From Escherichia coli (lineage in GTDB: Bacteria; Pseudomonadota; Gammaproteobacteria; Enterobacterales; Enterobacteriaceae): a DNA stretch of 64,000 nt. This document shows positions 204 to 356 of the stretch, in pieces. Each line of letters begins with the position of its first letter. Within the stretch, counting starts at the first letter, position 1. Under the pieces are notes generated by a model, which saw only the letters and a program-made list of their open reading frames with translations, ran no database searches and had not been told where the DNA came from. The DNA lies in the NCBI RefSeq assembly GCF_001677475.2, contig NZ_CP015229.1; one strand, given 5' to 3'. The translations under genes were made by a program, and so were the position numbers.

Positions 204-356
204 TGAAACCTCGTAGAATCTGGTGTGTTACCCGATTCTACGAGTTGTCATTTGTTACCGGTCAGTCTACACATTTCAGATGCTGCGTTAAAAAACCCAA
301 GTACTTCAAGTAGCACATCGTCATCAACACCCAGCCCCAAGATACGGTGATAAAAT

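Follow-up and report, generated by a model that had tools for sequence, protein, structure and literature searches.

The -10 hexamer of the late promoter LPsit lies in a conserved inverted repeat that probably pairs with the pmgC ribosome-binding site in P1-family phage-plasmids

Introduction

A perfect 11-bp inverted repeat stands between two minus-strand genes near one end of the Escherichia coli DNA analysed here, a stretch of 64,000 nucleotides that we call the window. The repeat ends only 6 nt before the start codon of pmgC (203..201, minus strand), and this position raises the question of whether it acts in DNA, as a site for a protein, or in RNA, as a terminator or as a structure of another kind. 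In phage P1, the late promoters consist of a 9-bp -22 box bound by the activator Lpa, a 4-bp spacer and a -10 hexamer. Accounts of late control commonly place it entirely at the level of transcription, with lpa repressed by C1 and 11 promoters activated by Lpa. According to the P1 annotation, pmgC is the first gene of the late operon pmgC-tub-pmgB-sit. Its product is essential and virion-associated, and is probably a head-tail joining protein (PMC9024508).

Results

Identity of the element and parts of LPsit

The window belongs to a P1-like plasmid prophage of E. coli. Its first 256 nucleotides share 95.7-96.5% nucleotide identity with the pmgC region of P1, P7 and their relatives, and positions 1-2600 are 99.4-99.9% identical to P1-type plasmids of E. 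coli. The gene for Lpa is also present (ORF 47423-47875, plus strand), and its product is identical to P1 Lpa at 150 of 150 residues. In a gap-free alignment, window positions 1-256 correspond to 46374-46629 of P1 (NC_005856), and the two elements annotated there for the late promoter LPsit, the -10 (46608-46613) and the "-22 region" (46618-46626), fall on window positions 235-240 and 245-253. Judged by this alignment, these window positions carry the orthologue of LPsit.

On the minus strand, the Lpa box (245..253), which maps one-to-one onto the P1 annotation, reads AAATGACAA, compared with AAATGACTA in P1 and AAGTGACTT in the consensus of the 11 P1 late promoters. The window box matches the AAGTnACTT-like consensus at 6/9 positions, P1 LPsit at 8/9, and the deviant box of P1 LPsit is also carried by P1 LP26. 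The spacer CTCG (244..241) and the -10 hexamer TAGAAT (240..235; form TANNNT) are identical to those of P1, and the hexamer is aligned with the annotated -10. From the geometry of sigma-70 promoters, we infer that transcription starts at about 228-229, which is 6-7 nt past the -10. The 5' part of pmgC (1..203, minus strand), recognized by its homology to P1, is cut by the window edge. It is preceded by a Shine-Dalgarno sequence, read from the sequence as GAGGT (208..212, minus strand), with 4 nt (TTCA) between this motif and the ATG.

An inverted repeat links the promoter to the ribosome-binding site

The repeat consists of CTCGTAGAATC at 210-220 and GATTCTACGAG at 234-244, separated by 13 nt. 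An earlier sequence-only reading had described it as a perfect 11-bp repeat with a 13-nt spacer, 3' of a minus-strand open reading frame of 355 codons (357-1424) and 5' of a partial gene, and all of this is borne out, the partial gene being pmgC. Its left boundary, given as 209, has to be moved by one base, because c209 is unpaired with t245 and the repeat starts at 210. About 110 nt lie between the 355-aa frame and the repeat.

Read along the minus strand, the region has the order AAATGACAA - CTCG - TAGAAT - C - GGGTAACACACCA - GATTCTACGAG - G - TTTCA - ATG. The upstream (5') arm (234..244, CTCGTAGAATC) is thus made up of the promoter spacer CTCG, the complete -10 hexamer and C234. The spacer between the arms (221..233, GGGTAACACACCA), which would form the loop of a hairpin, holds the inferred LPsit start. 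The downstream (3') arm (210..220, GATTCTACGAG) lies in the 5'-UTR of pmgC and is the perfect complement of 234-244, and its last three bases, GAG, begin the Shine-Dalgarno sequence. Since no promoter transcribes its own -10 hexamer, RNA from LPsit would start in the loop and would lack the 5' arm.

Two further promoter-related functions were considered and rejected. The plus strand also carries TAGAAT (214-219), as a bidirectional promoter would require, but this copy has neither a -22 box (CATTGAAAC at the corresponding place, with 4/9 matches) nor a -35 element, and its flank is the variable spacer between the Shine-Dalgarno sequence and the ATG. A sigma-dependent promoter-proximal pause was discarded by inspection, since the non-template ATTCTA past the start is not similar to a -10 element.

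The P1 record marks only the -22 box and the -10; its annotation says nothing of the 11-bp match that joins the -10 region to the pmgC leader. We found no description of a hairpin at LPsit and pmgC in the literature searched, a search that did not extend to the primary P1 papers. The hairpin is probably an undescribed addition to a known promoter.

Chance expectation and predicted fold

Perfect repeats of 11 bp or more with spacers of 3-30 nt numbered 0.35 in dinucleotide shuffles of the whole window, compared with 11 in the actual sequence. At 0.35 expected per window, a single repeat of this kind is unlikely to occur by chance, yet not impossible. The other members of the set include the lox recombination site of the P1-type element, a perfect 13-bp inverted repeat (ATAACTTCGTATA) with a short spacer at 53896-53929. 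The nine more lie at 4085-4110, 4464-4489, 6407-6457, 25998-26032, 29069-29097, 34818-34848, 40038-40065, 41595-41623 and 44652-44686, and several of them look like terminators, with GC-rich cores and A/T flanks (for example, AAAAAGCCC-type arms at 29069 and 44652).

RNA of the LPsit repeat region is predicted to fold with a free energy of -21.2 kcal/mol (z = -5.9), and none of 200 shuffled sequences was equally stable. The stem contains five G-C pairs among its 11, and G212, A211 and G210 of the Shine-Dalgarno sequence are paired in the predicted hairpin. Rfam covariance models gave no match at 1-600. Their only matches were to a C4 antisense RNA (2671-2758, plus strand, 76.7 bits) and an isrK-like RNA (2548-2626, plus strand, 58.9 bits); the segment 2548-2758 represents the immI region, upstream of the icd and ant genes.

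The sequence-only reading had set a terminator aside because the repeat is followed by no T run. Strictly taken, there is none: the 8 nt after the stem contain four T on the minus strand and five on the plus strand. A terminator scan did not call the site either, in agreement with the statement that it is not a canonical terminator. With no conserved U-tract and no call in the scan, we ruled out a canonical terminator.

Both arms are conserved while their surroundings vary

Copies of the region were gathered from viral and metagenome contigs with the first 20 nt of pmgC, not the repeat, as the anchor. In about 115 P1-family copies, neither of the 11-nt arms varies, the sole exception among the P1-type copies being one contig with 0.9x coverage and obvious errors. 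Variation in the P1-type copies is confined to the flank upstream of the Lpa box, the 3' end of this box, the loop, and the spacer between the Shine-Dalgarno sequence and the ATG. The segment GATTCTAC of the 3' arm has no role in the promoter or the ribosome-binding site, yet it is invariant, whereas the loop and the spacer before the ATG vary. Upstream of the Lpa box, there are at least six unrelated flanks, which represent different accessory genes, and the homology among P1-family elements with different cargo starts about 3 nt upstream of the -22 box. A recombination or cassette site was considered at this break and rejected, because the far side of the variable region carries no further copy of the repeat.

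A second lineage is formed by Cronobacter phage JK004 and Salmonella plasmids, whose PmgC shows 75-76% protein identity and whose pmgC genes differ at 55-61% of the 4-fold degenerate sites. The region reads CTCGTAAAATC-GGCTGAAGATCC-GATTTTACGAG in these elements. The sole differences in the arms are TAGAAT to TAAAAT and ATTCTA to ATTTTA, which occur at paired positions and exchange a G-C pair for an A-T pair. The inner GG/CC pairs are retained, and the spacer has another sequence and a length of 12 nt, compared with 13 nt in the P1-type copies. Over 14 distinct variants, all 11 pairs are kept (154/154 cells paired), one of them through a compensatory change. The conservation in related elements on which the sequence-only reading had made its own proposal depend is therefore present, in about 115 copies and in a diverged lineage.

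A profile scan of genome contigs with PmgC yielded five loci, none of which is intermediate between the two lineages. In the D6, Pantoea and Vibrio cholerae relatives, pmgC directly follows bplB, and neither promoter nor repeat is found there. The two genes lie within one late operon in D6 (1440-1500), the Pantoea plasmid and the V. cholerae plasmid, and the block that parts them in P1 (immunity, replication and accessory genes) is located elsewhere in these elements. In JK004, only a two-gene cargo and LPsit are inserted at the bplB-pmgC junction. From these gene orders, LPsit with its hairpin appears to accompany the insertion of foreign genes at this junction.

A further indication of selection comes from the 13 arm positions that serve neither the promoter nor the ribosome-binding site (CTCG, C and GATTCTAC). 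They show one change, which is compensated, and we estimate the chance of at most one change in 13 neutral sites at such divergence to be about 5e-4. These positions have hardly changed beside a scrambled loop, from which we conclude that selection acts on the complementarity itself. It might be argued that the arms are simply retained as a promoter and a ribosome-binding site, and that their match is a historical accident, for example, of a local duplication-inversion. The -10 and the Shine-Dalgarno sequence would be conserved in any case, the chance expectation of 0.35 per window is not negligible, and only one covariation event is available. However, such an accident does not account for the single compensated change at role-free positions next to a heavily substituted loop and SD-to-ATG spacer, or for CTCG, since the corresponding spacer position varies freely in other P1 late promoters. 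We regard it as very unlikely that the complementarity has no function of its own, and a recurrence of the design at a second promoter (see below) points in the same direction.

Selection on a perfect palindrome overlapping a promoter would also be expected if a dimeric phage or host protein bound the DNA and repressed or modulated LPsit by covering its -10 and start. The compensatory change fits a DNA palindrome as well as an RNA helix, because a symmetric operator would also show the change in both arms. A known protein-binding palindrome, the Lpa -22 box (245-253), adjoins the repeat and is not within it. When the window was searched for further copies of the palindrome, as the sequence-only reading had suggested, no additional half-site was found with up to one mismatch, and 8 were found with up to two mismatches, compared with 13.2 expected; an operator is thus left with no second half-site in 64 kb. 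Furthermore, the spacing of the arm centres shifts by 1 bp between the lineages and the spacer is not conserved, which a protein dimer would tolerate poorly and an RNA loop easily. Such a site is also absent from the other ten P1 late promoters, and P1 late promoters are in any case silent without Lpa. We consider an operator most unlikely. The proposal of a protein-binding palindrome therefore holds in so far as the site is regulatory, conserved and not a terminator; the repeat itself is probably not a binding site, as it has no second half-site, its spacing is 13 nt in one lineage and 12 nt in the other, and its arms correspond to the -10 and Shine-Dalgarno regions.

Predicted accessibility of the ribosome-binding site

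In JK004, the predicted hairpin is also stable (-24 kcal/mol, z = -6.0), and its helix extends outward to the AUG. For RNA that starts in the loop, the predicted structure does not exceed that of shuffled sequences, with z values of -0.8 for the window and +1.0 for JK004. We compared the predicted cost of opening the ribosome-binding site in a read-through RNA, which would contain both arms, with that in the late RNA. For GAGG, the cost is 8.3 versus 4.2 kcal/mol in the window and 9.1 versus 4.3 kcal/mol in JK004. For the segment from GAGG to the AUG, it is 10.2 versus 6.7 kcal/mol in the window and 14.1 versus 5.6 kcal/mol in JK004.

Accessory genes upstream of LPsit are co-oriented with pmgC

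In the window, the slot of P1 simABC is occupied by three accessory ORFs on the minus strand (357-2315), which encode proteins of 355, 158 and 116 residues and are co-oriented with one another. The nearest to LPsit is the 355-aa gene (357..1424, from the ORF list), co-oriented with pmgC. The C-terminus of its product matches a bacterial SH3 domain (Pfam SH3_3, E = 1e-5, just under the curated cut-off), and the protein carries LRKQL/ILQKQ-like repeats. The 116-aa product is apparently a membrane protein. Among 50,697 phage records, there was no match to the window cargo beyond position 264; the cargo block was found in 26 plasmids.

The slot upstream of pmgC holds at least six different gene sets across P1-family elements, co-oriented with pmgC wherever examined. 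The upstream genes are simABC in P1, upf50.0 and upf50.5 in P7, two genes in JK004, two in each Salmonella plasmid and the three ORFs of the window, and they are co-oriented with pmgC in all five contexts. No terminator could fit between the cargo and LPsit in four of the five (P7, JK004 and two Salmonella plasmids), where just 9-30 nt separate the stop codon of the last cargo gene from the -22 box. In the window, a consensus scan detected a weak terminator-like hairpin at the cargo stop codon (359..374, minus strand), with a 6-bp stem, three G-C pairs and the tail GAATTTTATC. This site may reduce read-through into the LPsit region but probably does not abolish it.

This gene arrangement bears on another explanation, in which the RNA hairpin acts on the upstream transcript instead: it might block 3' exonucleases, mark a site of processing, or weakly terminate accessory-gene or upstream late-operon RNA at the operon boundary without a protein factor, and it would overlap the -10 and the Shine-Dalgarno sequence merely because the intergenic space is short. 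Because the cargo of P7, JK004 and Salmonella stops 9-30 nt short of the promoter, any structure at the 3' end of the upstream RNA could indeed not avoid overlapping the promoter, and the tail after the P1-type stem, GUUUC, contains three U. However, the U-tract is not conserved (GUUGGC in JK004 and Salmonella) and no terminator was called. A mere 3' barrier would need neither the Shine-Dalgarno sequence nor exclusion from the RNA of the promoter, and the helix of JK004 covers the AUG. We consider a role for the upstream RNA unlikely but a serious alternative, and the other late promoters provide evidence on both sides of this question.

Complementarity at other late promoters

For the 11 annotated P1 late promoters, we compared the untranscribed promoter segment with the Shine-Dalgarno region, using 4000 random P1 segments for each. 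Complementarity stands out in only two of them, LPsit (p about 0.001) and LPpac (p about 0.02). Without LPsit, the combined p values by Fisher's method were 0.78 for duplex energy and 0.06 for the longest match, neither of which is significant. A general rule for the P1 late promoters was therefore rejected, as nine of the 11 are indistinguishable from random segments.

A separate instance was found at LPs, upstream of the tail-fibre gene R, in JK004 (about 3725-3790, minus strand) and the Salmonella plasmid p21-SA00706-0 (about 18311-18376, minus strand). The sequence there contains a 14-bp repeat, CCATAAAATCAGAC-N12-GTCTGATTTTATGG, followed by AG. The 5' arm is composed of the spacer, the -10 and 5 nt more, and the 3' arm abuts or ends in the Shine-Dalgarno sequence GGAG. 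The predicted folds have energies of -19.9 kcal/mol (z = -4.2) in JK004 and -23.6 kcal/mol (z = -5.7) in Salmonella. The design at LPs is an independent recurrence of the same geometry, and its repeat shares only the -10 hexamer with that of LPsit.

LPs weighs against each of the alternatives introduced above. A single protein could not read two repeats that are unrelated apart from the -10. In addition, the Salmonella LPs pairs TAGAAT with ATTTTA, which places a G.U pair at the -10; this asymmetry is allowed in RNA and not in a DNA palindrome. The recurrence of the design is difficult to reconcile with an accidental match at LPsit. Similarly, a geometry that recurs at two unrelated promoters is not what a simple 3' barrier would produce. 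On the other side, RNA upstream of LPs in JK004 and Salmonella is itself late, which is compatible with a function at the end of the upstream transcript, and hairpins without a U-tract are found at other cistron boundaries. In place of the 14-bp repeat, P1-type LPs has a GC hairpin, CACCCCG..CGGGGTG, that immediately precedes the -22 box; in D6, a plain GC hairpin (CCCGCC..GGCGGG) stands between bplB and pmgC. These GC hairpins hint at a more generic role of hairpins in RNA 3' ends or processing.

LPpac (window 47907-47963, plus strand) is located between lpa and pacA. Here, the last bases of the -22 box together with the spacer read CTTTCGT (47913-47919) and can pair with ACGAAAG (47945-47951), a segment adjoining the Shine-Dalgarno sequence of pacA. 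The helix has 6-7 bp, and across three lineages it shows an in-register double change (T to G and A to C) plus a G.U pair: CTTTCGT/ACGAAAG is replaced by CTTGCG/CGCAAG in Salmonella and by CTTGCG/TGCAAG in JK004. The overall fold of LPpac is not significant (z = -1.1).

At LP23, the promoter of the major capsid gene (window 13114-13186, minus strand), CTCTTCC immediately after the -10 (13167..13161) is complementary to the Shine-Dalgarno sequence GGAAGAG (13127..13121). Three compensatory pairs seemed to distinguish P1 (CTCTTCC/GGAAGAG) from JK004 (GTCCT/AGGAC), but alignment showed that the JK004 helix is shifted by one register against the conserved AAGGA, and the evidence at LP23 is weak. 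The LP23 complementarity persists in JK004 and Salmonella only with this one-base shift. P1 LP23 also carries a CCTCC-rich pyrimidine tract further upstream.

Discussion

The -10 hexamer of LPsit (240..235) is inside the 5' arm of the repeat (244..234), and this arrangement suggests how the repeat might work. Transcripts that enter from the co-oriented accessory genes would contain both arms, and such read-through RNA would fold into a hairpin of 11-13 bp with the Shine-Dalgarno sequence held at its base. From this RNA, pmgC would be poorly translated, and Rho-dependent termination of the untranslated RNA may be a further step. When Lpa activates the promoter, the polymerase would start the LPsit RNA in the loop; the 5' arm would be absent from it and the ribosome-binding site free. 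The net effect would be that the tail and neck operon becomes translationally insensitive to transcription of the accessory genes. This model, in which RNA from upstream genes masks the ribosome-binding site and LPsit transcripts escape the masking, is the explanation that we prefer, and we give it an even chance of being correct.

Several observations speak against the masking model. Only three bases of the Shine-Dalgarno sequence are in the P1-type stem, and at its base, and the predicted gain in accessibility is modest (2-4 kcal/mol). The covariation at LPsit is a single event, which represents two lineages. Most P1 late promoters do not share the design. At LPs of JK004 and Salmonella, where the upstream transcript is itself late, an argument from read-through in the lysogen fails. 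In the window, the weak terminator-like site (374..359) may already limit read-through. Between RNA and DNA, we favour RNA because the spacer varies in length and sequence, there is no second half-site, the JK004 helix reaches the AUG, and the design recurs at LPs.

Taken further, P1-family phage-plasmids may repeatedly place a complement of the ribosome-binding site in the untranscribed part of Lpa-dependent late promoters, which would make virion genes deaf to upstream transcription. The boundary next to pmgC could then form the fixed edge of a hot spot for the exchange of diverse accessory genes, with no leakage of tail-gene expression in the lysogen. The cases to be counted would be LPsit in all lineages, LPs in JK004 and Salmonella, and the shorter helix at LPpac. 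We offer this generalization tentatively and think that it is somewhat more likely to be wrong than right.

If the masking model is correct, a post-transcriptional layer is added to late gene control in P1. It would also explain how a plasmid prophage tolerates constitutively expressed accessory genes that nearly touch an essential virion operon on its upstream side, and it would mean that P1-family elements and phage T4 have converged on one regulatory design with different promoter classes. In practical terms, insertions made upstream of pmgC, or constructs that reuse LPsit as a part, would carry or break the hairpin, which concerns the engineering of P1 phagemids and P1-like phage-plasmids.

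Known systems with similar features help to place the repeat. Like an intrinsic terminator, it forms a stable predicted stem-loop in an intergenic region directly after a co-oriented gene. Unlike one, it has only five G-C pairs in 11, a 13-nt loop and no U-tract, and its sparse tail is not conserved (GUUUCAAU versus GUUGGCAU). With palindromic operators, such as the Lpa -22 box itself, it shares perfect dyad symmetry over a promoter; it differs from them in that it occurs as a single copy, the spacing of its half-sites varies, and its arms are explained by other elements.

The proposed mechanism has its parallel in phage T4. Early transcripts of the T4 genes e, soc, 49 and I-TevI, which are longer, hide the ribosome-binding site in a helix, and the DNA that encodes the 5' strand of this helix also contains a late promoter (PMC3014915). 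As in T4, the Shine-Dalgarno sequence of pmgC is in the 3' strand, the late promoter is in the DNA for the 5' strand, and RNA initiated at the promoter would lack that strand. A longer, structured RNA could also be supplied at LPsit, by transcription from the co-oriented upstream genes. There are also differences. T4 late promoters depend on gp55 and gp33, whereas LPsit uses the sigma-70 polymerase with the activator Lpa. In T4, the upstream RNA comes from early or middle promoters of the lytic cycle, whereas that of LPsit would come from accessory genes of a prophage. Moreover, the P1-type helix holds only the first three bases of the Shine-Dalgarno sequence. With these differences, the LPsit repeat is probably a further member of the T4-type class, in which a late promoter lies inside a hairpin that sequesters the ribosome-binding site of the gene that it serves.
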